Assembly (NCBI GenBank): GCA_964389705.1
Contig: CAYMEO010000001.1
Location: 2,591-66,590, forward strand
DNA length: 64,000 bases
Direction of reading: 5' to 3'
Origin: an uncultured Spirochaetia bacterium
GTDB lineage: Bacteria > Desulfobacterota_D > UBA1144 > Nemesobacterales > CSP1-2
The translations under genes were made by a program, and so were the position numbers. Every line of letters starts with the position of its first letter. Position 1 is the stretch's first letter. Shown here in pieces: positions 1,936-41,560 of this stretch. The notes below the pieces were generated by a model that was not told where the DNA came from, searched no databases, and saw only the letters and a list, made by a program, of their open reading frames with translations.

Positions 1936-3231
1936 TTATCCTACTTTCACTCTTATTCTCCCACTCAGCAAATCATCCATCAACCCCTTCTTCACCCTTT
2001 CAAGCTTCTCTTTCCTCTTCCTCAACAACTCCAACCTCTTATCCACCGTAGAAAGAATCTCAGCGATTTTTTTCTGTTCGGGAAGGGGAGGGAGGGGGAG
2101 TTTTATCTTTTCTACTTGTGAGCTATTTAAGGCAGGATACTGTCCTCCTACCATCATTTTATTACATTGTTCTATAACAGGTTTTGAGAAGAGAGTATAC
2201 AGTAAATAGAGAGGCAATATTTTTTCTTTGCAAGTTAGTACAGCAAATCCTGTTGAACATATCTGGTTATCATACTCTCTAGGAACAATCGCAAATGCTT
2301 TTAAATATGGACGAACCATAGACATAATAACATCGTTATAATGAATCAATCTTCTTGCTCTTGAAGGAGCTTCTTTTCCAACCATTGCTTTAGCATTTCT
2401 AACAATTCCCCGTCCATTTTCAACAGAGTCAATATCAATATAAAAGAATTGTTTGTCTGGAAATTCTCTTGTAGGGTCTCTTGATTCTTTATTAATATCA
2501 ACTACTTCTTTTAATTCCTTAATCTCCCACTCCTTCGGTATCCTTCCTATATCCGTATCCGTTTGTTTAAATTCTCTTCTCCCCTGTCTACCGTCTACCG
2601 TATTCCGTCTACCAGTCAATAGCTCCTGCATCAAGCCCTTCTTCAGCCTCTCGGTCTTTTCTATGGCTTCATCAACCTTCTCAATGGCTTTATCCACAGT
2701 AGAAAGAATCTCTGCAATTTTTTTCTGTTCGGGAAGTGGAGGGAGAGCAATAGTAATAGCTTCCAATGTACTCTTCCTTATGGATGGTGCCGCTGTCTGT
2801 CCAGCTAGTCGTTTAAGGTCGATTTTCTCTAAAAGATAATAAAACAAAAATTCTGGTTCTATTTCATTTTTTGAAATTAGTCCTGCAACATTGTTGTCAA
2901 AAGTTCCCCAAATTTTTAGAATCCTAAATTTATTTAGGTATGTGGACATTCCAATTTTAGGAAAAATAATTGTGTTTGGTGGACAAATTTTAACCTTCAA
3001 AGTTTCTAAGATCGTATCATCTATAAAATTCTCTGAGTAGCTTATGTATTTAGGAGCAAGATTTAGATCATTTACTTTGATAAAAGGATACTTTCCATCT
3101 TTGTTTCCCTGATACTTTATAGGAAATCCAAATCCACTTACTACTTCTGCTATTTCTCCCAACCTCACCACATCCCACTCCTTCGGTATCCTTCCTATTT
3201 CTGTTTGCTTGAATTCTTGTTGTGTCGTCAT
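1936..3231 (-). CDS. hsdS: Type I restriction-modification system specificity subunit HsdS
   Basis: 431 aa. Two target-recognition domains, each preceded by EFKQT.IGRIPKEW. Two copies of the conserved coiled-coil spacer LPPLPEQKKIAEILSTVDK..E......RLKKGLMQ/DLL. This is the classic duplicated HsdS architecture. Confidence 0.9.
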   Translation of the reverse strand: MTTQQEFKQTEIGRIPKEWDVVRLGEIAEVVSGFGFPIKYQGNKDGKYPFIKVNDLNLAPKYISYSENFIDDTILETLKVKICPPNTIIFPKIGMSTYLNKFRILKIWGTFDNNVAGLISKNEIEPEFLFYYLLEKIDLKRLAGQTAAPSIRKSTLEAITIALPPLPEQKKIAEILSTVDKAIEKVDEAIEKTERLKKGLMQELLTGRRNTVDGRQGRREFKQTDTDIGRIPKEWEIKELKEVVDINKESRDPTREFPDKQFFYIDIDSVENGRGIVRNAKAMVGKEAPSRARRLIHYNDVIMSMVRPYLKAFAIVPREYDNQICSTGFAVLTCKEKILPLYLLYTLFSKPVIEQCNKMMVGGQYPALNSSQVEKIKLPLPPLPEQKKIAEILSTVDKRLELLRKRKEKLERVKKGLMDDLLSGRIRVKVG

Positions 3232-3248
3232 CCTATTTTTGCCTCTTT

Positions 3249-3324
3249 TGTCATTCTGAACGAAGTGAAGAATCTAGGGTTCAATTTAATTTCACTAGAT
3301 CCTTCGCTGTCGCTCAGGATGACA
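3249..3324. repeat. REP/MITE-like palindrome, copy B
   Basis: TGTCATTCTGAACGAAGTGAAGAATCTAG ... CTAGATCCTTCGCTGTCGCTCAGGATGACA, about 28 bp inverted arms. Confidence 0.7.
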
Positions 3325-3346
3325 GATACTATAGACCAGTCCTAGA

Positions 3347-3404
3347 TGTCATTCTGAGCCGAAGGCGAAGAATCTGAGACCCTTCGCTAACGCTCAGGGT
3401 GACA
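3347..3404. repeat. REP/MITE-like palindrome, copy C
   Basis: TGTCATTCTGAGCCGAAGGCGAAGAATCTGAG / ACCCTTCGCTAACGCTCAGGGTGACA, inverted arms. Confidence 0.7.
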
Positions 3405-3438
3405 AAAACGACCTCTTTGTTCATTGCGTTTATCAAAA

Positions 3439-3743: not shown

Positions 3744-3831
3744 TGTCATTCTGAGCCGAAGCGTAGCGAAGGCGAAGAATCCCGGAGTTTGAGATGCTTC
3801 GCTAGATCCTTCGCTGTTGCTCAGGATGACA
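3744..3831. repeat. REP/MITE-like palindrome, copy D
   Basis: TGTCATTCTGAGCCGAAGCGTAGCGAAGGCGAAGAATCCCGGAG / ...GATCCTTCGCTGTTGCTCAGGATGACA. Confidence 0.7.
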
Positions 3832-3852
3832 GCATTGATTAATAAAATTAAC

Positions 3853-5610: not shown

Positions 5611-5775
5611 GCCAGTTGGGTATCATAAGCTTCCTCCCTCGATTATATAAGCTTTTAAACAATTACTTATACTATAAGCAGAAAGGATAATTATCAAGAG
5701 AAGGTAGAAAAATCGCAGTCAAAAGTAGAAGAAAGGATTAGAAATGACATCTAGAGCTGATATTATAATAGGGTC

Positions 5776-5845
5776 TGTCATCCTGAGCGGTAGCGAAGGA
5801 TCTACCTCTTCTGGCTTCTTTGTCGCTTCGCTCCTCAGAATGACA
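5776..5845. repeat. REP/MITE-like palindrome, copy E
   Basis: TGTCATCCTGAGCGGTAGCGAAGGATCTACC ... TGTCGCTTCGCTCCTCAGAATGACA. Confidence 0.65.
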
Positions 5846-5878: not shown

Positions 5879-5990
5879 GTCACTCTGAGCACATTCATTA
5901 TTATTCAGTGTAAACTCCGCGAAGAATCTCGGAGTGCTAGACCCTTCGCGGAGTTTACACTGAATAAGGCACGCCCTGAGTGCAACCGAA
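5879..5990. repeat. REP/MITE-like element, copy F, with nested perfect 19 bp inverted repeat
   Basis: GTCACTCTGAGC...CAGTGTAAACTCCGCGAAG AATCTCGGAGTGCTAGACC CTTCGCGGAGTTTACACTG...GCCCTGAGTGCAAC. Confidence 0.65.
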
Positions 5991-13907: not shown

Positions 13908-15122
13908 TCAATTATTCACTGTAATGAAGGCTGATTCTATAGATGGTTCCAGGTTCTTTAATTTATCCCTGTAGGTTTTGGCATCTTTTATAGTTTTAAA
14001 CTTTCCTATCCTTACTCTGTACCAGGTGCCTTTTCCGGGAATCTGCGCCGTTGTCACAAAGGCCGGGTATCCCTTGGATGTTAAGTCTTCTGTGGTTTCT
14101 TTTGCTTCCTCTTCTGTTTTAAAAGATCCTATTTGAATAGTGTATCTTCCGCTGGATTGAGTTGGAGGTATTGTCACAGTTTTGTTTTCAATACCCGTTT
14201 TTATCAGTTTTTCGGTAAACGGCGTAGGGGATGGAATTGGGTTTTTACCCCCCTCGGTTATTTTCAGTCTTCGTTTCTTTTCCATACCCTCTATTGGCAA
14301 GGTTTGCCTAGTCGTTCCGGCTTCAGCCCTTTTTATTGGCTCAGTGACGTGAGAGGAGGTTGAGATTTGCTCTTCAGTTTTTAATTTTATCGGCTCAGGT
14401 GTAGAAAGAGGAGAGGCTTCTCCTTGATCGATTTTTACCACGCGAAGGTTGTTAAAACCTCTCTTCATTATCAGGTTTCCCTCTTTGAGTTCTATCTCTG
14501 TAGATCCAACGATTTCTTTTGGACTTTCAATGACGAGCTTTCTTGGCGACTCAGCAATAAGCCTGGTCTCTCGGCCACCGATCTTAACTGCTGTAGTGTT
14601 GAAGTTTCCATCAAACAGTCCCCCAATCCAAATCGGTTTTCCTGCTTGTCCAATCCCAGGAAATTGGTAATTCCCAGGAGAAGGAGTTGCTGTTCTCTCA
14701 GCGGCAGGTGCAATCTCGAATGGAATTTGGGCTCTGGCTATCTCCTCCCCATTTTTATCTCTGAGAACGAGATATATCGGCTCTCGGCTTAAGGTGACAG
14801 GAACAGTCCATTTGATAACTCCTTCAGCCACAGATGTCCTCTCTTTTCCTATTTCAATGAGGTATCCGTTTAACTCATCTGCATTCTTGTGTCGCTCTTC
14901 TTCGATCTTGCCCCTTGGCTCTGTAGTTATTGTGCCTGAGATGGTATCGCCTACAGTTATATCATCGGGCAGGTTTACTGTAACCTTGCCTTGAATGACA
15001 TCGAAGACAATGACATAGAGTCCCAAGTCTGTTTCAAAGCTGGATGAAACCTTGCCTTCCGCAAAGGCAGCTACAGTAAAGGAGAAAATCAAGATCAGTA
15101 TAAATGGCGCCGGTTTTCTCAA
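13908..15122 (-). CDS. secreted SPOR-domain protein (peptidoglycan-binding, sporulation-related repeat)
   Basis: 404 aa. N-terminal signal peptide MRKPAPFILILIFSFTVAAFA. C-terminal SPOR domain YTIQIGSFKTEEEAKETTEDLTSKGYPAFVTT...GTWYRVRIGKFKTIKDAKTYRDKL. Confidence 0.8.
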   Translation of the reverse strand: MRKPAPFILILIFSFTVAAFAEGKVSSSFETDLGLYVIVFDVIQGKVTVNLPDDITVGDTISGTITTEPRGKIEEERHKNADELNGYLIEIGKERTSVAEGVIKWTVPVTLSREPIYLVLRDKNGEEIARAQIPFEIAPAAERTATPSPGNYQFPGIGQAGKPIWIGGLFDGNFNTTAVKIGGRETRLIAESPRKLVIESPKEIVGSTEIELKEGNLIMKRGFNNLRVVKIDQGEASPLSTPEPIKLKTEEQISTSSHVTEPIKRAEAGTTRQTLPIEGMEKKRRLKITEGGKNPIPSPTPFTEKLIKTGIENKTVTIPPTQSSGRYTIQIGSFKTEEEAKETTEDLTSKGYPAFVTTAQIPGKGTWYRVRIGKFKTIKDAKTYRDKLKNLEPSIESAFITVNN

Positions 15123-15703
15123 TCGTTCACCTTAATGAGCACCGATTTTATATCAGGATCCTTTTTTAAATTGTCTCCGTAGAGTTCGGCTTCCTCTCTA
15201 GTTTTAAACTTCCCTACTCTTATTCTATACCAGGTTCCCTTTCCTGGGATCTCGACAGATTTTATAAATGCAGGGTACCCCTTAGATATAAGGCTCTTTA
15301 CGATTTTTTTTGCCTCTTCTTCTCTTTGAAATGCCCCTATCTGAACCGTATACCTCCCATCTGTTTCGCCCCGAAAAACCGCTATATCCTTTTTGGTAAT
15401 TCCCATAGTCTCTATTTTTATGTCCTTGGGTGCGGGCGTTGAGGATAATTTTTCTTCTTCGAAGGGGGTCGGTATCTGCTCAGATATTGATTTTCTTTCG
15501 GCTGTTTCCTCAGGTGTTTTTCCTGTCTCTTTAAAATCGGTTAAATTTTTCGTGGGCTCCCCTTTTTTGTTTATCCAAGATTGCGCTCCCCCAAGTCCCT
15601 TTCCTACAACTACACCCAGGCTAAATGCAAGGACAAATAGGATTAAAAACCCAATGAATATATGTACAACCTGACGATTACTCGAATTATTTCTATCACT
15701 CAT
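15119..15703 (-). CDS. membrane-anchored SPOR-domain protein
   Basis: 194 aa. One N-terminal TM helix. C-terminal SPOR domain YTVQIGAFQREEEAKKIVKSLISKGYPAFIKS...GTWYRIRVGKFKTREEAE. 4-nt overlap with the downstream SPOR gene. Confidence 0.8.
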   Translation of the reverse strand: MSDRNNSSNRQVVHIFIGFLILFVLAFSLGVVVGKGLGGAQSWINKKGEPTKNLTDFKETGKTPEETAERKSISEQIPTPFEEEKLSSTPAPKDIKIETMGITKKDIAVFRGETDGRYTVQIGAFQREEEAKKIVKSLISKGYPAFIKSVEIPGKGTWYRIRVGKFKTREEAELYGDNLKKDPDIKSVLIKVND

Positions 15704-17775: not shown

Positions 17776-18798
17776 ATGAAGGTTAGAGTTCTTTTCTTAG
17801 TTCTGGCGGTAGCGTTGGGCTTTGGGATCACATATTTATATAATCCACATCATACCGAGAGTACTATTATCGTTATGGCAGCTGCTATTGGAATTATATT
17901 CGGTGCCGTAGCCCTTGGAATTTTATGGGGGCTTGAACCCAAGATTGATCAAATTACTCCAAGGTCAATGCTCGGAGGCGCAATAGGAGTAGCTATTGCC
18001 TCGCTTGCTTTTTTGGCATTTAAAGAATTGATTGAGGAGTTGGGAATCCCACACATCGCTCCGTACGCCCTTATTGTAGCTTTTCTTTGGCTTTTCTATA
18101 TCGGAATAAGGATGGGAATGAGGAAGGGTTGGGAAGCCGACCAGATGGGAAAGAGGTCTTTTGCTAAGAGTAACTTTGGTGGACCCAAGATACTCGATAC
18201 AAGCGTCATTATAGACGGAAGGATCGCGGATGTTGCCGAGGCTGGGTTTATTGAGGGGCTTATAATTGTGCCCAAGTTTATAATTAAAGAGCTCCAATAC
18301 ATAGCTGATTCAATTGATCCGATTAAGAGGGTAAGGGGAAGAAGGGGACTCGATGTGCTAAAGCGTATGCAGGAGATTCCCAATATTGTAATTAAGATTA
18401 CAAGCCACGATTTCCCGAAGATAAAGGAGACGGATTTAAAGCTTGTAGAACTCGCAAAGAGTATCAAAGGGATTATAGTAACGAATGATTTCAATCTGAA
18501 TAAGGTTGCAGGGCTTCACGGTGTGAAGGTACTCAATCTCAATCAGCTTTCAAGCGCGCTTAGACCCGTGGTGCTTCCGGGCGAGACAATCAATATACGC
18601 GTCGTTAAAGAGGGAAAGGAAGAAAACCAAGGCATAGGTTATCTTGAGGATGGGACTATGGTTGTTGTAGATGATGCTAAGAGGTATGTGGGAAGGGAGA
18701 TAGAGGTTTCCATAACGAGTGTACTTCAAACTCCTACGGGAAGGATGATATTCTCAAGGGTTAAGGAAGAGGGCATGGTCTCTGGTTTTGGTGGTTGA
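17776..18798 (+). CDS. PIN and TRAM domain membrane protein (YacL family)
   Basis: 340 aa. N-terminal TM helices. PIN region ILDTSVIIDGRIADVAEAGFIEGLIIVPKFIIKEL. C-terminal TRAM-like beta domain. Conserved position upstream of ispDF. Confidence 0.75.
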   Translation: MKVRVLFLVLAVALGFGITYLYNPHHTESTIIVMAAAIGIIFGAVALGILWGLEPKIDQITPRSMLGGAIGVAIASLAFLAFKELIEELGIPHIAPYALIVAFLWLFYIGIRMGMRKGWEADQMGKRSFAKSNFGGPKILDTSVIIDGRIADVAEAGFIEGLIIVPKFIIKELQYIADSIDPIKRVRGRRGLDVLKRMQEIPNIVIKITSHDFPKIKETDLKLVELAKSIKGIIVTNDFNLNKVAGLHGVKVLNLNQLSSALRPVVLPGETINIRVVKEGKEENQGIGYLEDGTMVVVDDAKRYVGREIEVSITSVLQTPTGRMIFSRVKEEGMVSGFGG

Positions 18799-20127: not shown

Positions 20128-22509
20128 ATGGATTCCTTTCTCCTAAAATATAAAATCCTAGGTCCGCTCCTTGGCTTTGTCTCAGGAATACTAATTGCCG
20201 AGTGGGCAAAGAACGGATGGATTCTGATCGTACTTCTCTCTCCCATCTTCGGTGCCTTGTCCCTTTTTAAACCCAAATTCGGTTTCTTAATATTCATTCC
20301 AATTGGGATTCTATTTTCTACAAGACCGAACCTTCCAGAAAATCACATCTCTCACTTTACGGGAAAAGAACTCGACATTGAAGGGATTCTATTTGAATCT
20401 CCAGAGAGTAGGGAAAAGGGATCGAGGTTGTTTATTGATGCCCAAGCCGTTTTTATAGAAGGGAAAAGGGAGCAGGTATCGGGGAAGGTAATGATATCTA
20501 CGGAGGAGAGAATAGGAGGGCTTGCAGACGGGGATAGGGTTAGGGTGCTCCGTACGAATCTCAGAATCCCAAGGAGTTTTCAAAATCCGGGCAGTTTCAA
20601 CATCAAGCGCTACTATGAAAGACAGGGGATTTATGCTACTGGATTTGTTCCGGGAGAGCAATGGATTATATCGTTTGGGAAGGACAAGTCCTCGAATTTC
20701 TTTCTCCACGCGATAGATAGATTTAGAGTGAGGTTTGGAAATTTTGTAAGAAAGAAATCTCCTTTTCCCGAGAGCGAAATACTAAATGCTATGACAATTG
20801 GGGATCAAGGTGCGGTGCCATCTGAATTAAGGGATCAGTTCTCCAAATCTGGAATAAGCCACATCCTTTCAATTTCAGGGCTTCATGTGGCAGCGGTTGT
20901 ACTTGTTTTTTATATCTTGATTAAATGGACTTTGAAGCGCTCCGAATTCCTTCTTCTTAGGTTTCGGGTGCAAAGACTTGCAGCCGCTCTCACAATTATT
21001 CCCCTTTTCATATACACAGCCCTTGCGGGATTCGCCACCCCTGTGGTACGGGCATCTATAATGGCTGCGCTTTACTTAATCTCGATAGTTATAGGCAGAG
21101 AGGAAAATAGATTAAATACGCTTGCCGTTTCAGCTTTTATTATTCTCCTTTGGCACCCATGGGCAATCTTTGAGCTATCATTTCAACTCTCTTTTGCCTC
21201 GGTTCTCGGAATACTCATTATGAATAAGTTTTATCCGTTCAAGCTAAGCACGCTTAAAGATAAGTTCTCATCAAGCGTAAAGACCACTATTGCTGCATCA
21301 GCCGCCACTTTGCCGTTTATAATAACGTCTTTTGGAATCTTCTCTTTTGTATCTATCCCTGCAAACCTCATTCTTGTTCCTTTCTCCGAATTTCTTATAG
21401 TTCCCCTTGGGCTTCTCTCTTTCTTGGCCTTTGTAATGTCCAAAACTATTGCTATGCCTTTCCTTTATGCGGACATTTTTTTTACGAAATTATTTCTTTG
21501 GGGGAACAGTCAGTTTTTAAAAATCCCTCTTTCTTCTCTGACTGTTCCGCCTCTAAGTGGTGTAAGTTGGATATTCTACATGGCTATAGCTTTGGTTATC
21601 CTTTTTCAAAAGATACATCACAGACTCAGATTTCTTCTTCCATTTCTCATTCTGGGATTTCTTCTCGCCTCGGCATACGGTATATTGAGCAATTCGAAGA
21701 AGGGGTTTCTAGAGGTGGATTTTCTTGATGCCGGAAGTAGGGATATAATCTTCATACGCCTTCCCGAAGAAAAGACAGTTCTCGTTGACGGTGGGTTTTC
21801 ATACCACGACACAGGCGGCTACATAGAAAAAGGGGTTGTTGTCCCATTTCTTCTTAAATCGGGTGTTACAAGGATTAATTATCTGATCTTAACCTCCCTC
21901 GATAGAGACCATCTAGCAGGTGTCAAAGGCATAATACAGAAATTAAGTGTAGAGAGGTTGTGGACAAATGGACAGAGGCTTGACAGCAAGATTTGGGAGA
22001 TAATGAGGGATAGAAATATTATTTGGAAGGATATATCGGATGAGGTAGAAACTCTCAATATAGAAGGAGTTCAAATCGAGTTTCTAAAGCCAAGAGTGGA
22101 ACTTAGGTATGAGGATTCATTAAGGCCCTATCCGATTATAGGGAAATTGACTTTCAAAAACACGGGCTTTCTCTTTGGAGAAGGTATAACAGAAGAGAGG
22201 GTACAGTCCGAGCTTATTAAGACATATAGAGATAGAATCAGAAGCGATGTGCTCTATGTACCAAAGTTCTTTATGAGGCAAAATAGCATTACTGATTTCA
22301 TATCGGCGATTTCTCCGATGATTATCGTGACAAACTCTGGATTCCAGAATTTTAATGAATCACATTACCCAAGGACAATAAAAGGCGATGATGAGAAAAC
22401 ACAGTATATTTTTCAAACCGACGTTCAGGGTACAATCACAGTTCTTACCGATGGAAAACAGATTAGAGTTAGAACATTTCTAGATAAAAGTATGGAATCA
22501 GTGTATTGA
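20128..22509 (+). CDS. comEC: DNA internalization-related competence protein ComEC/Rec2 with C-terminal metallo-beta-lactamase domain
   Basis: 793 aa. DUF4131 N-terminus. Polytopic competence domain (SGISHILSISGLHVAAV). C-terminal MBL fold (LDAGSRDIIFIRLPEEKTVLVDGG, LTSLDRDHLAG). Confidence 0.85.
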   Translation: MDSFLLKYKILGPLLGFVSGILIAEWAKNGWILIVLLSPIFGALSLFKPKFGFLIFIPIGILFSTRPNLPENHISHFTGKELDIEGILFESPESREKGSRLFIDAQAVFIEGKREQVSGKVMISTEERIGGLADGDRVRVLRTNLRIPRSFQNPGSFNIKRYYERQGIYATGFVPGEQWIISFGKDKSSNFFLHAIDRFRVRFGNFVRKKSPFPESEILNAMTIGDQGAVPSELRDQFSKSGISHILSISGLHVAAVVLVFYILIKWTLKRSEFLLLRFRVQRLAAALTIIPLFIYTALAGFATPVVRASIMAALYLISIVIGREENRLNTLAVSAFIILLWHPWAIFELSFQLSFASVLGILIMNKFYPFKLSTLKDKFSSSVKTTIAASAATLPFIITSFGIFSFVSIPANLILVPFSEFLIVPLGLLSFLAFVMSKTIAMPFLYADIFFTKLFLWGNSQFLKIPLSSLTVPPLSGVSWIFYMAIALVILFQKIHHRLRFLLPFLILGFLLASAYGILSNSKKGFLEVDFLDAGSRDIIFIRLPEEKTVLVDGGFSYHDTGGYIEKGVVVPFLLKSGVTRINYLILTSLDRDHLAGVKGIIQKLSVERLWTNGQRLDSKIWEIMRDRNIIWKDISDEVETLNIEGVQIEFLKPRVELRYEDSLRPYPIIGKLTFKNTGFLFGEGITEERVQSELIKTYRDRIRSDVLYVPKFFMRQNSITDFISAISPMIIVTNSGFQNFNESHYPRTIKGDDEKTQYIFQTDVQGTITVLTDGKQIRVRTFLDKSMESVY

Positions 22510-31325: not shown

Positions 31326-32174
31326 TCAGGGAATAAGAGCAGCATATTTGTCGAGTAATGGAAGTAAAGTCTCTTTACTGGCTGATGGTAATCCGAAGAT
31401 CACACGCTCAACTCCCGCCTTCTCCAACTCATCAACCGTTCTCTGATCGGGATTAGTATCATAGAAGTAGTAAACGATGGAGACCGAGATTTGCTTAGGA
31501 TCTCGCCCTGCAGCTTCTGCGCGCTGACGCAGTATCGTGATCTTTTCTGACAAGACAGAGGGCTCTATACCAGTAGGTATCCAGCCATCACAAAACTCGA
31601 TAATGCGATCAAAGGTTTTTGGCCCATCGCCTCCCATTAGGATAGGTGGGTGTGGCTTCTGTACAGGTTTGGGATACGACCAGATCTTATCGAAGTTGAC
31701 GAATTCTCCGTGAAATTCTGCCTCCTCCTTGGTCCAAATCTCTTTCATCGCTAAAATACGCTCGCGCAACACACGCCATCTTCTCTTGAAATCGGTGCCA
31801 TGATTTCCCATTTCTTCTGCGTTCCAGCCCCCACCAATACCGAATATAAAACGGCCTCCCGACAACTGGTCTAAGCTAGCGACCTCTTTCGCTGTAATGA
31901 TCGGGTCACGCTCAATAACTAAGCATATTCCAGTTGCAATCCGTAGCCGAATTGTAACTGTAGCAGCCGCAGTGAGTGTAATGAAAGGGTCATAAGTGTG
32001 CCAGTATTCTTTGGGTAGTTCTTTTCCGCCAGGCCAGGGACTGCGGCGGCTCGCCGGGATATGGGTGTGTTCAGGTACCCATAGGGATTCAAAACCGCGC
32101 TCTTCGAGTGCGCGTGCCAGATCGGCAGGGTGCATGGCATATTCTGTTGCAAAGATTGAAGCTCCAAATAACAT
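31326..32174 (-). CDS. LLM-class (luciferase-like) flavin/F420-dependent oxidoreductase
   Basis: 282 aa. MLFGASIFATEYAMHPADLARALEERGFESLWVPEHTHIP, a typical LLM N-terminus. Confidence 0.75.
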   Translation of the reverse strand: MLFGASIFATEYAMHPADLARALEERGFESLWVPEHTHIPASRRSPWPGGKELPKEYWHTYDPFITLTAAATVTIRLRIATGICLVIERDPIITAKEVASLDQLSGGRFIFGIGGGWNAEEMGNHGTDFKRRWRVLRERILAMKEIWTKEEAEFHGEFVNFDKIWSYPKPVQKPHPPILMGGDGPKTFDRIIEFCDGWIPTGIEPSVLSEKITILRQRAEAAGRDPKQISVSIVYYFYDTNPDQRTVDELEKAGVERVIFGLPSASKETLLPLLDKYAALIP

Positions 32175-32267: not shown

Positions 32268-33182
32268 CTACTTCCTCTCATGCCCTCCACCTCTTAGAAT
32301 ATGGAACGCATGAAGCACCCAGGGAAATAGGGCATCCATTGATTCCGAAGCTCCCCTTGAGCTCCCAGGTAGGTTTATAATTATGGTCTTTCCCCTTACC
32401 CCTGCAGTCTCTCTTGATAACATTGCATAAGGGGTTCTTTGGAATCCATAGATCCTCGCAGCCTCAGGGATTCCAGGAACATCCCTTTGTATCACCGTTT
32501 TTGTGGCATCAACCGTTACGTCCCTTGGGTTGAGTCCAGTCCCTCCACTTGTCAGAATTAAATCCACTTTCTCCTCATCGGAGAGCCTTATAAGCTCCCT
32601 TTTTATCATGTCAAAGTCATCCGGAAGGATTCTGTACTCTACAACCTCAACAGGCTCTTTCTTGAGTTTTTCAACTATAATTTTTCCGGACTTATCCTCC
32701 TTTTTGCCCTGAGAGACCGTATCGGAAAGCACAAGGACCGCGGCCTTAAGAGGGGGCTTAAGATGCTGTTTCCACTCGCTCTTCCCGCCTCGTTTTTCAA
32801 TGAGTTTCACTGAGGTAATCTCGAGTGAATCGTCAATCGGCTTTAGCATATCGTATATGGTTAGAGCCGCAATTGAGGCTGCGGTAAGGGCCTCCATCTC
32901 TACACCCGTTTTCCATATAGCCTTTGCCTGAGTTTTAATTACAATCTTTTCTCCGAACTCAAAATCTACAGAGATCCAGTCTAGTGGAACCTGATGGCAA
33001 AATGGAATGAGTTCAGAGGTCTTCTTGGCCCCCAGAATTCCCGCCGCACGCGCCATCTCAATTACATCTCCTTTTGGCACATCCCCACTTTTAACCATAT
33101 CAATCGTCTCTGGCCTTGCTCGGACGGTAGCCTCAGCGGTAGCCTCTCTGAGGGTATCTAATTTTTCGCTTACATCTATCAT
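32268..33182 (-). CDS. moaC: bifunctional molybdenum cofactor biosynthesis protein: MoaC (cyclic pyranopterin monophosphate synthase) fused to a MogA/MoaB-like domain
   Basis: 304 aa. N-terminal about 150 aa is MoaC (PFCHQVPLDWISVDFEF..., EMEALTAASIAALTIYDM). C-terminal about 150 aa is MogA/MoaB-like (AAVLVLSDTVSQG...LILTSGGTGLNPRDVT...INLPGS). Confidence 0.85.
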   Translation of the reverse strand: MIDVSEKLDTLREATAEATVRARPETIDMVKSGDVPKGDVIEMARAAGILGAKKTSELIPFCHQVPLDWISVDFEFGEKIVIKTQAKAIWKTGVEMEALTAASIAALTIYDMLKPIDDSLEITSVKLIEKRGGKSEWKQHLKPPLKAAVLVLSDTVSQGKKEDKSGKIIVEKLKKEPVEVVEYRILPDDFDMIKRELIRLSDEEKVDLILTSGGTGLNPRDVTVDATKTVIQRDVPGIPEAARIYGFQRTPYAMLSRETAGVRGKTIIINLPGSSRGASESMDALFPWVLHAFHILRGGGHERK

Positions 33183-33400
33183 GGTTTTATTCCATCAATG
33201 ATTTATGGTATTGTGCTTTTATTCTATTGCCCATCTATAAATACATTACAGTTTACAGAATTTAGACTAAAAAACTACATTCGAAAGAACCTTGCTTATC
33301 ATACATTCATCTAATAGATAAGAAATGGTTGACATCTCTAAGCACATTTAATCTGGAGGTGTGAGGTATAGCGTATAATTAAGTAGTAGAGCTTCTGTTT

Positions 33401-34348
33401 GTGATGGGAGTTACAAGTGCCCTTATTATACTGGTTAGAGGGAGAAGCGGAGTCAGAATGAAGACTAAGGATCAAGAGAACAACGATAGAGAAGAAAATA
33501 AGGAAAAGGCTATCATAGAAGAGAAGCAGCCCCATATCGTCGAGTTTAGTTATACAGATAAGACCGCCATCGAGCCTGGGACATATCTTGATAGCGGCGG
33601 GGCCCTAATACCTCAGAATCTAATCTCCCGACGACACCATTGGGTTGTCCGTCTTACGCACTGGGTCAACGTGTTGGCGCTTACCATAATGGTGACAAGC
33701 GGACTGAGGATATTCAATGCCTATCCTATGTTTGCCCGTAGGGGAGATACATTCTGCTGTTATCCGTTTGAGGGGATTCGAATTCCGGAGTGGCTCACAT
33801 TTGGCGGATGGCTGGCAGGGGCACGTAATTGGCACTTCGCTATGATGTGGCTCTTGGTACTAAACGGGCTGGTGTATCTGGGGTTTATATACATCCACGG
33901 TGAGTGGCGAGAGTTGGTGCCACGGCGCGGAGACCATCGCGACGCCTGGGAGATGTTCAAGTTCTACATGTTTGTGCGAAAAGAGCACCCAAAACAGAGA
34001 AAGCATAACACACTCCAGAGGCTTACATACTTCGCAATGCCGCTTATCGGTATTGTCGCGGTGCTCACGGGGGTCGCAATCTGGAAGCCGGTGCAGCTTG
34101 GATTTCTCACGAATCTGTTCGGGGGCTATGTATGGGCGCGATACTGGCACTTTATGTCAATGGTCGCGCTGGTGGCATTATCCATTGTGCACATATTTAT
34201 GGTCTTCGCGGTTGATCCCTACTCCCTACCTTCTATAATTACCGGCCGTTATAATGAGAGGTACGCGCCTGAGAGACGTAATGCACGGCCTTTTTATAAC
34301 CTGTTGCCAGTCCGGGGGTCTGCTATTGCCGGGGAGAAAGAAAAATGA
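33401..34348 (+). CDS. membrane b-type cytochrome (Ni/Fe-hydrogenase-type cytochrome b, PF01292-like), partner of the downstream Mo-oxidoreductase
   Basis: 315 aa from the GTG at 33401. The true start may instead be the ATG at 33458 (MKTKDQ..), which has a GGAG RBS. Four predicted TM helices with conserved His (HHWVVRLTHWVNVLALTIMV, WHFAMMWLLV, WHFMSMVAL..HIFMVF). The first 12 codons of the long ORF copy a pilin N-terminus (see findings). Confidence 0.6.
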   Translation: MMGVTSALIILVRGRSGVRMKTKDQENNDREENKEKAIIEEKQPHIVEFSYTDKTAIEPGTYLDSGGALIPQNLISRRHHWVVRLTHWVNVLALTIMVTSGLRIFNAYPMFARRGDTFCCYPFEGIRIPEWLTFGGWLAGARNWHFAMMWLLVLNGLVYLGFIYIHGEWRELVPRRGDHRDAWEMFKFYMFVRKEHPKQRKHNTLQRLTYFAMPLIGIVAVLTGVAIWKPVQLGFLTNLFGGYVWARYWHFMSMVALVALSIVHIFMVFAVDPYSLPSIITGRYNERYAPERRNARPFYNLLPVRGSAIAGEKEK

Positions 34349-41026: not shown

Positions 41027-41560
41027 TTAATAAACTGGACTACAGCTGCTTGTCGAAGAGTTCCAGTTTCCCTCAACAACGCTTATTCTTCCAAATGGAC
41101 TTACTACGACTTGCCCACACCTCTCGCCATTTTTACTACTGGTGGGTTGTATATTAACCGTTCCACTAGCGCCGCCAAGTGTGCCATCTGGATTAAAATT
41201 AAATGTCTTGCTGGCCGGTGATAGAGTTACTTGTTTGACGTCTATTATTTGAGAGCTTTCAGTAACATAGCAACTAGAACAGGTACCCCTGTTGCTGTTG
41301 CCCCTTTGTGTTACTATAGTCAGGGTCTTAGCTGTCGAGTCGAATGTTAAAACCGCCTGATACTCTAAGCCCTGCCTTGCAGACTTGAGTTTTATGAGTT
41401 GAAGCGAGGATGAAATCGTCCTTGTTACATTGTCCGTTGAATGGCGCTTATAAAATTTCCCTGACAGTACCCCACCCAGTATAATAAGGGCACTTGTAAC
41501 TCCCATCACAAACAGGAGCTCTACTACACTAAATCCTTCTCCTTTTTCCATAAAAGCCAT
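41027..41560 (-). CDS. type IV pilin-like protein (PilE/FimT-like minor pilin; prepilin N-terminal methylation motif)
   Basis: 177 aa. Prepilin leader and cleavage motif KGEGFSVVELLFVMGVTSALIIL (G/FS...E at +5). Confidence 0.75.
   Translation of the reverse strand: MAFMEKGEGFSVVELLFVMGVTSALIILGGVLSGKFYKRHSTDNVTRTISSSLQLIKLKSARQGLEYQAVLTFDSTAKTLTIVTQRGNSNRGTCSSCYVTESSQIIDVKQVTLSPASKTFNFNPDGTLGGASGTVNIQPTSSKNGERCGQVVVSPFGRISVVEGNWNSSTSSCSPVY

Follow-up and report, generated by a model that had tools for sequence, protein, structure and literature searches.

An inverted 52-nt copy of minor-pilin coding sequence in the leader of a cytochrome b operon: a probable one-off templated insertion in a Candidatus Dadabacteria lineage

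Two pilin systems invite comparison with a locus at which part of a minor-pilin gene recurs, inverted and some distance away, in front of a cytochrome b gene. The Moraxella bovis/lacunata type IV pilin inversion (Piv, tfpQ/tfpI) involves a segment of roughly 2 kb that contains two alternative pilin 3′ halves, with the piv recombinase gene next to it; the likeness lies in inverted repeats, one of them within the constant 5′ coding part of a pilin gene. In the antigenic variation of Neisseria (pilE/pilS) the likeness lies in partial pilin-gene copies elsewhere in the genome; the pilS copies are multiple, have a variable 3′ part, are without the N-terminal constant region and the promoter, and serve as donors to pilE. 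At the locus considered here, in contrast to Moraxella, the arms enclose 8 kb of housekeeping genes, with a single pilin body, no recombinase and one observed orientation, and unlike the Neisseria copies the additional pilin fragment is single, is confined to the N-terminal helix and has received pilin sequence instead of donating it.

Other comparisons are with kinds of mutation. Filler-DNA capture by Ku/LigD-type NHEJ resembles the present case as a clean fragment insertion with neither microhomology nor duplication or loss at the target. Template-switch mutations (quasipalindrome or strand-switch) likewise leave an inverted templated copy of nearby sequence, but their usual span is from tens of bases up to roughly a kilobase and they depend on a priming microhomology, whereas the distance here is 8 kb and there is no such priming match. 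The best-described bacterial source of short ectopic templated tracts is, in the account given in summary by 10.1101/2023.11.22.568220, a process called short-patch double illegitimate recombination, or SPDIR, in which stray single strands anneal at microhomologies at the replication fork, with microindels of 3 to about 100 bp as the outcome; the same source, summarising work of 2016, has it seen under laboratory selection in Acinetobacter baylyi at ~1e-12 to 1e-13. Set against that summary, the likeness is of short ectopic intragenomic DNA at an unrelated locus, as a one-off, with no dedicated enzyme or mobile element and with the donor unchanged: a tract of 52 nt, 51 of them identical to a locus 8 kb away in the same genome, with two copies in the window and one in the sister genome. 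The difference, on the same description, is that microhomology at both crossovers defines SPDIR, whereas here it is 0 nt when exact and at chance level when extended; further, no target bases were replaced here, and the change is fixed in a natural lineage rather than recovered by selection in the laboratory.

The repeat pair and its pilin arm

A combined repeat and DNA search of the 64-kb window (by which we mean the whole stretch of DNA analysed) places the inverted pair at 33383-33434 (+) and 41476-41527 (−), the arms being about 8 kb apart. They are 52 nt long and identical at 51 positions, 40 nt of the pair form an exact repeat, and this is the longest inverted repeat of the entire window. 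A prior sequence-only reading had given the left arm correctly and had counted one mismatch over 52 nt, as is found; its right arm, put at 41481-41536, was displaced by 5-9 nt. Its judgement that the match is far beyond chance is also upheld, there being no such match in 100 dinucleotide-preserving shuffles. The sole mismatch is at position 12, where 33394 has T and the pilin gene has C (CTT/CTC, both Leu and so synonymous there).

No third copy of the 52-mer exists in the 64 kb with up to 3 mismatches allowed. The 40-mer occurs once, in the pilin gene, in the genome of Candidatus Dadabacteria MAG ERB_12_1 (GCA_040289575.1, L002 below), a sister species and the closest named genome; this is its only match among 185,579 species-representative genomes, a collection that is without the window's own genome. 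In JGI metagenome contigs, a collection without the relevant samples, the 40-mer found no match, and a scan there with a conserved intergenic 24-mer returned the contig of a more distant relative (L008) alone. The segment is thus probably no genome-wide dispersed repeat of the sort that the sequence-only reading had allowed for, with two copies in the window and one in the sister genome; a REP or MITE identity was rejected on the copy number of two and on the lack of an internal palindrome. Also rejected was a link to the REP-like elements or the RAYT-like ORF at the window's left end, the 52-mer having no hairpin and no sequence in common with them.

Those other repeats deserve brief mention in their own right. 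A family of REP-like hairpins with the core ...GTCATCCTGAGCG..CGAAGGATCT... clusters around type I restriction genes, at 929-957, 3247-3275, 3291-3332, 3371-3405, 3798-3832, 5768-5804 and 5901-5967, with related hairpin elements in relatives (L002 10580-10654; L018 7570-7664). Beside them lies a REP-associated tyrosine transposase-like gene (1315-1924, −; a weak match to NCBIfam NF047646) which appears to be split into two overlapping ORFs, 1523-1924 and 1315-1587, and is probably a pseudogene. A 114-nt direct repeat, 90% identical (474-587 versus 1959-2072 and 2610-2723), belongs to the conserved region of type I hsdS (1936-3231); its copy at 474-587 stands outside hsdS, near small HicB-like and DUF2283-like ORFs (250-432 and 638-856), and is probably a leftover hsdS fragment. 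A 197-nt repeat of 71% identity, 13954-14150 versus 15162-15358, involves two adjacent SPOR-domain genes, which is consistent with their being tandem paralogues.

An ORF of 177 aa (41027-41560, −), the last of a pilV-pilW-pilX-pilY1 operon and in the pilE position, contains the right arm; the other members of the operon (48859-41576) were recognised by profile-model matches as PilV-, PilW-, PilX_N- and PilY1-like. The N-terminus, MAFMEKGEG|FSVVELLFVMGV... (MAFMEKGEG|FSVVELLFVMGVTSALIILG at the start of the ORF), is of prepilin type, with Glu at +5, and the ORF combines the features of a type IV minor pilin: a G|F cleavage site, Glu+5, a hydrophobic helix and a pilV-W-X-Y1 operon. Its match to PF12019 GspH (E=0.0095) is below the cut-off, a weak GspH/FimT-like profile match, and JGI labels the pilin homologues FimT. 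The GspH/FimT match being weak and the JGI name as stated, we therefore describe the product as a minor pilin that occupies the pilE position.

The donor segment (41476-41527, −) comprises codons 12-29 of the minor pilin and encodes the N-terminal hydrophobic helix VVELLFVMGVTSALIIL(G), or more exactly V12-L28 and the first base of G29. Counted from the G|F prepilin cleavage site these are residues +3 to +20, Glu+5 included. The assignment of the segment to pilin 5′ coding sequence for the N-terminal helix, already made from the letters of the window, is thereby confirmed, and the orthologues agree. ERB_12_1 has a minor pilin with 93% protein identity to that of the window, the donor segment is conserved in both protein and DNA in the orthologues of L002, L008 and L014, and the pilin N-terminus is kept in every orthologue examined. 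Because the segment belongs to that conserved N-terminus, the pilin copy is the ancestral one and the donor.

The cytochrome b leader in the window and its relatives

The left arm lies within the 275 nt that separate a divergent pair of genes, a moaC-mogA fusion (32268-33182, −) and a cytochrome b561-type gene (PF01292; 33458-34348, +; 296 aa from its real start), so placed that the inserted copy (33383-33434, +) is part of the leader of the cytochrome b operon and sense relative to cytochrome b. The cytochrome b gene is the first of a cytb/MsrP-like Mo-oxidoreductase/msrAB/moaA cluster, and the plus strand after it carries an MsrP-like molybdopterin oxidoreductase gene, msrA-msrB, moaA, phoH and, beyond a single small ORF on the minus strand, a hemD-hemE fusion. 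ERB_12_1, whose locus has 91.1% DNA identity to the window, keeps the gene order: holB, pil operon, hemDE, phoH, moaA, msrAB, MsrP-like gene, cytochrome b, moaC. Nearby differences of another kind were seen as well. Some relatives have a hairpin element between the minor pilin gene and hemDE (in L002 it is 112 nt with a perfect 32-nt stem), and the window has no hairpin insertion there; the Logan contigs L003, L004 and L006 end 75 nt past the pilin stop, probably at this element. A luciferase-like (F420-type) oxidoreductase gene (31326-32174, −) is intact in the window, and in the ERB_12_1 MAG deletions of 399 and 143 nt have left a 152-aa remnant.

The intergenic region of ERB_12_1 aligns base for base with that of the window save for the 52 nt. 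Its empty site reads ...GCGTATAATTAA|TTGGAGGGAG (in the fuller alignment ...GCGTATAATTAA|TTGGAGGGAGAAGCGGAG...) and the filled site of the window ...GCGTATAATTAA[52 nt]TTAGAGGGAGAAGCGGAG..., with no bases of the target lost and none duplicated. The BLAST segments between the two genomes break at 33382|33435, which are exactly the homology boundaries, and because the boundaries of the indel equal those of the pilin homology the difference is a templated insertion, not a deletion, a polarity that is read from one empty-site genome (L002). The more distant L008, 82% identical and with the same synteny, has 89 nt of unrelated sequence at the site (18314-18402), which does not resemble the 52-mer (1266 of 2000 shuffles do as well in score). 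From the TATA-like box to the ribosome-binding site the length of leader accordingly differs by lineage: about 0, 52 and 89 nt.

Filled sites recur in four or five other data sets that are 98.6-100% identical to the window. JGI 3300062133 (L019, 98.8%) has both junctions and an insert identical at 52/52 positions; Logan SRR24490440 (L018, 98.6%) supplies the right junction and SRR24490441 (L023, 99.76%) the left; contigs L022 and L025 of Logan DRR163687 (100%) supply left and right junctions, this last being possibly the reads behind the window's own assembly and so perhaps not independent. The copy and the pilin gene of its own genome share GCC (Ala) where the ERB_12_1 pilin gene has GCT. At the mismatch the copy has the T of the L002 and L008 pilin genes, from which it follows that the C of the window's pilin gene is a later synonymous change. 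The insertion thus dates from the interval between the parting of the lineage from the ERB_12_1 species (~9% divergence) and the radiation of its strains, whose differences reach 1.4% at most. Judged by all the strains sampled, it is fixed in one species-level Ca. Dadabacteria lineage. The insert is perfectly conserved, which at ~1% strain divergence is uninformative on selection.

A TATAAT box (33374-33379, +) in a conserved TAGCGTATAAT motif is 3 nt upstream of the insertion point, and is kept in the window, L002 and L019 (TATATT in L008). A TAA stop (33380-33382, +) directly upstream of the insert is native target sequence, being found at the empty site also. The insert ends 23 nt upstream of ATG 33458, and a GGAG ribosome-binding site (33449-33452, +), conserved in L002, L019 and L018, is 5 nt before this ATG. 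A sigma-70 promoter scan gave the TATAAT box no canonical −35 partner, and the promoter and terminator scans together gave nothing beyond chance; by its sequence the box is a possible candidate for a −10 element. If it is one, the transcript would start within the insert, and the insertion would have lengthened the 5′ untranslated leader of the operon from ~22 to ~74 nt. Folding of leader plus insert gives no significant structure (z = −0.31), and a Moco or other riboswitch was considered and rejected, Rfam having no match over 33100-33520. Within the insert, at 33400-33415, is a CRP/FNR-like palindrome, TGTGA-N6-TTACA, with a 9/10 match to the CRP palindrome.

Alternative readings of the repeat

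Might the repeat be a product of assembly, through a chimeric join or a misplaced read, as the sequence-only reading had wondered? In its favour are the shortness of the copy and its source in a metagenome contig (ENA ERZ1669417 NODE_25, 81 kb at 19x coverage; an 88-kb NCBI version also exists). However, an identical insertion with the same junctions is present in JGI, Logan and ENA assemblies of different samples, and so independently of sample, assembler and strain; the flanks differ between strains, which marks these as separate sequences, and to either side of the insert the sequence is collinear with relatives. The Logan contigs, built with k=31, stop at the position that corresponds to 33424 and resume at 33405, which are the limits of unique 31-mers around the 40-nt exact repeat, and since the contigs break at these predicted limits the repeat is present in two contexts in the Logan read sets. 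With the filled site recurring in four or five other data sets a chimera is refuted, and the probability left for any artefact is negligible. Breakage has a consequence of its own, in that k=31 assemblies break at the repeat inside the pilin gene and so lack that gene, which is why there is no complete pilin protein on record from the Logan samples. A different reading takes the insert as protein, translated from GTG 33401 or ATG 33404, so that cytochrome b would truly gain a transmembrane extension at its N-terminus. In the window the insert is indeed in frame with cytochrome b, no stop lying between the TAA at 33380-33382 and ATG 33458, and for this reason the public gene call begins at ATG 33404, inside the insert, and gives 314 aa (MGVTSALIIL). 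Against an extension, L018 and L019 have a 2-nt deletion (TTAGA--GAGAA) between insert and start codon which puts the insert out of frame, and these close strains retain an intact gene called at 296 aa from MKTKDQ; an extension whose frame is broken in two strains is not a conserved feature of the protein. No Shine-Dalgarno sequence precedes 33401 or 33404, in contrast to the GGAG before 33458. Orthologues are called at 296-297 aa with starts at MKTKDQ/MEVRK, and of the 1,993 homologues retrieved those inspected have a charged, Lys/Glu-rich N-terminus and none has a pilin-like N-terminal helix. An added N-terminal helix would, moreover, invert the topology of a four-helix cytochrome b. An extension is hence extremely unlikely, and by homologue starts and the position of GGAG the real start is ATG 33458, the MKTKDQ methionine that had been favoured from the outset, with the start of the 314-aa entry an artefact of the insert. 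Of the in-frame extension earlier described, the frame holds in the window but is an accident of strain. (Four more distant cytochrome b relatives, P0055, P0058, P0061 and P0064, are called at 350-393 aa with an N-terminal biotinyl/lipoyl-like domain, PF00364; these long calls reflect either a genuine fusion or two genes merged in the calling.)

The remaining readings grant the insert a function. One takes the 8-kb segment as an on/off switch for the minor pilin, inverted by recombination at the two arms, and it draws on the arms' inverted disposition, their 52 nt with 40 nt exact, and the location of one of them in pilin 5′ coding sequence as in Moraxella. Inversion would leave a pilin body without promoter, start or leader peptide and would fuse the pilin leader to cytochrome b, in frame in the window; this frame, though, is broken in L018 and L019. 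Neither a leaderless pilin nor a pilin::cytochrome b chimera is present in the 90% clusters of a 15-billion-protein collection, and a chimeric query (pilin leader, helix and cytochrome b) returned no chimeric protein from 5.8 billion proteins. Every assembly with context has the ancestral orientation, that of L002 and L008, and the opposite one is absent from the assemblies of the window, L019, L022/L023/L025 and L018. The segment itself consists of seven housekeeping genes with no alternative pilin 3′ end, what lies beyond the second arm being cytochrome b and not a pilin body, and one arm is wholly absent from the sister species. No recombinase is encoded in the 64 kb: all ORFs were read, the doubtful ones against Pfam and NCBIfam, with no invertase, integrase or IS110-type gene among them, the only transposase candidate being the disrupted REP-associated Y1 transposase-like ORF 31 kb away. 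An invertible switch is accordingly very unlikely, although inverted repeats spaced 8 kb apart could in principle allow rare RecA-mediated inversion. The suggestion of a pilin 5′ cassette used in recombination is not supported, there being two copies only in the window and no second pilin body, recombinase or recombinant forms; in place of multiple promoterless copies of a variable region as in pilS there is one extra copy, of the conserved N-terminal helix only, and the ERB_12_1 genome carries the segment once, in the pilin gene alone. The other functional reading has the insert co-opted as a regulator, either through the 52 nt of RNA that it has in common with the pilin mRNA or as a CRP/FNR-like operator downstream of the promoter. 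The insert's position, 3 nt past the conserved TATAAT and 23 nt ahead of the start codon, means that the leader must be altered; the insert contains the palindrome mentioned above, and it is fixed in all sampled strains of the lineage. On the other side, the window has no enrichment of CRP-like sites (3 versus 1.2 expected, equalled by 17% of shuffles), the L008 pilin gene does not keep the motif, the leader is without significant RNA structure, and fixation within a clade of at least 98.6% identity is expected for a neutral change too. We regard co-option as unlikely, with the insert most likely, and by assumption, neutral or nearly so.

Mechanism and meaning of the insertion

The reading that we hold to be probable is a one-off templated insertion, with the pilin gene as donor and the copy inverted, 8 kb away and neutral or nearly so. 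A single mutational event would have copied 52 nt of the genome's own minor-pilin gene, codons 12-29, and set the copy down in the opposite orientation 8 kb off, downstream of the conserved TATAAT box and ahead of the operon's ribosome-binding site. It took place in the ancestor of one species-level Ca. Dadabacteria lineage, after ERB_12_1 had split off. The donor pilin gene is still intact, and the copy carries no start codon context, leader peptide or pilin body. That this is an insertion, where it came from, when it arose, that it is fixed and that it is not translated as a conserved piece of cytochrome b can be taken as shown; the longer leader, the neutrality and the route are inferred. 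The sequence-only reading had also thought of the transfer of a promoter or leader; a fragment did move, but it brought no pilin promoter, no start codon and no prepilin leader peptide.

That the event was a one-off follows from a survey of indels. Over 20 kb the window and L002 differ by 14 indels of at least 8 nt, among which only the 52-nt insert has a second copy. As to route, a templated insertion of a pilin-gene fragment can be asserted with high confidence, and the choice is between break capture and fork integration. By the former, a stray fragment of DNA would have been captured at a break; by the latter, a stray single strand would have been integrated at a replication fork, as a microindel of SPDIR type. 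Exact microhomology at the two junctions is 0 and 0 nt, and the best extended matches, with shifts allowed, are 6/10 and 5/10, a result equalled by 14% of random donors (p ~0.14). Junctions without microhomology lack the hallmark of annealing at a fork or of template switching, and together with the 8-kb distance they argue against a replication template switch. The junctions are best matched by blunt capture of a DNA fragment where a double-strand break had occurred, and nothing break-prone was identified at the insertion site. The window also encodes a ComEC/Rec2 competence-channel protein (20128-22509, +; PF03772, DUF4131 and a weak metallo-beta-lactamase match). Together with the pilus genes this may mean, circumstantially, that the organism takes up DNA, which could supply single strands.

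What, then, does the insert mean for its bearer? It is not a pilin-switching or new pilin-variation system, and owing to it the public 314-aa cytochrome b entry of this organism starts at the wrong codon. There is an outside chance that the insert, with its 52 nt of pilin mRNA sequence and CRP/FNR-like palindrome at the head of the transcript, puts an operon for the repair of oxidative damage under a regulator or small RNA to which the minor pilin is subject too, or provides for a RecA-dependent 8-kb inversion by which the minor pilin is silenced at low frequency. If true, either would be a natural random templated microindel exapted for regulation in an uncultivated phylum. Whatever its effect, the locus is a well-resolved natural case of an ectopic templated insertion in a bacterium, with empty site, filled site, donor and timing identified, and ectopic templated insertions being mostly known from laboratory selections, it may interest those who work on illegitimate recombination.
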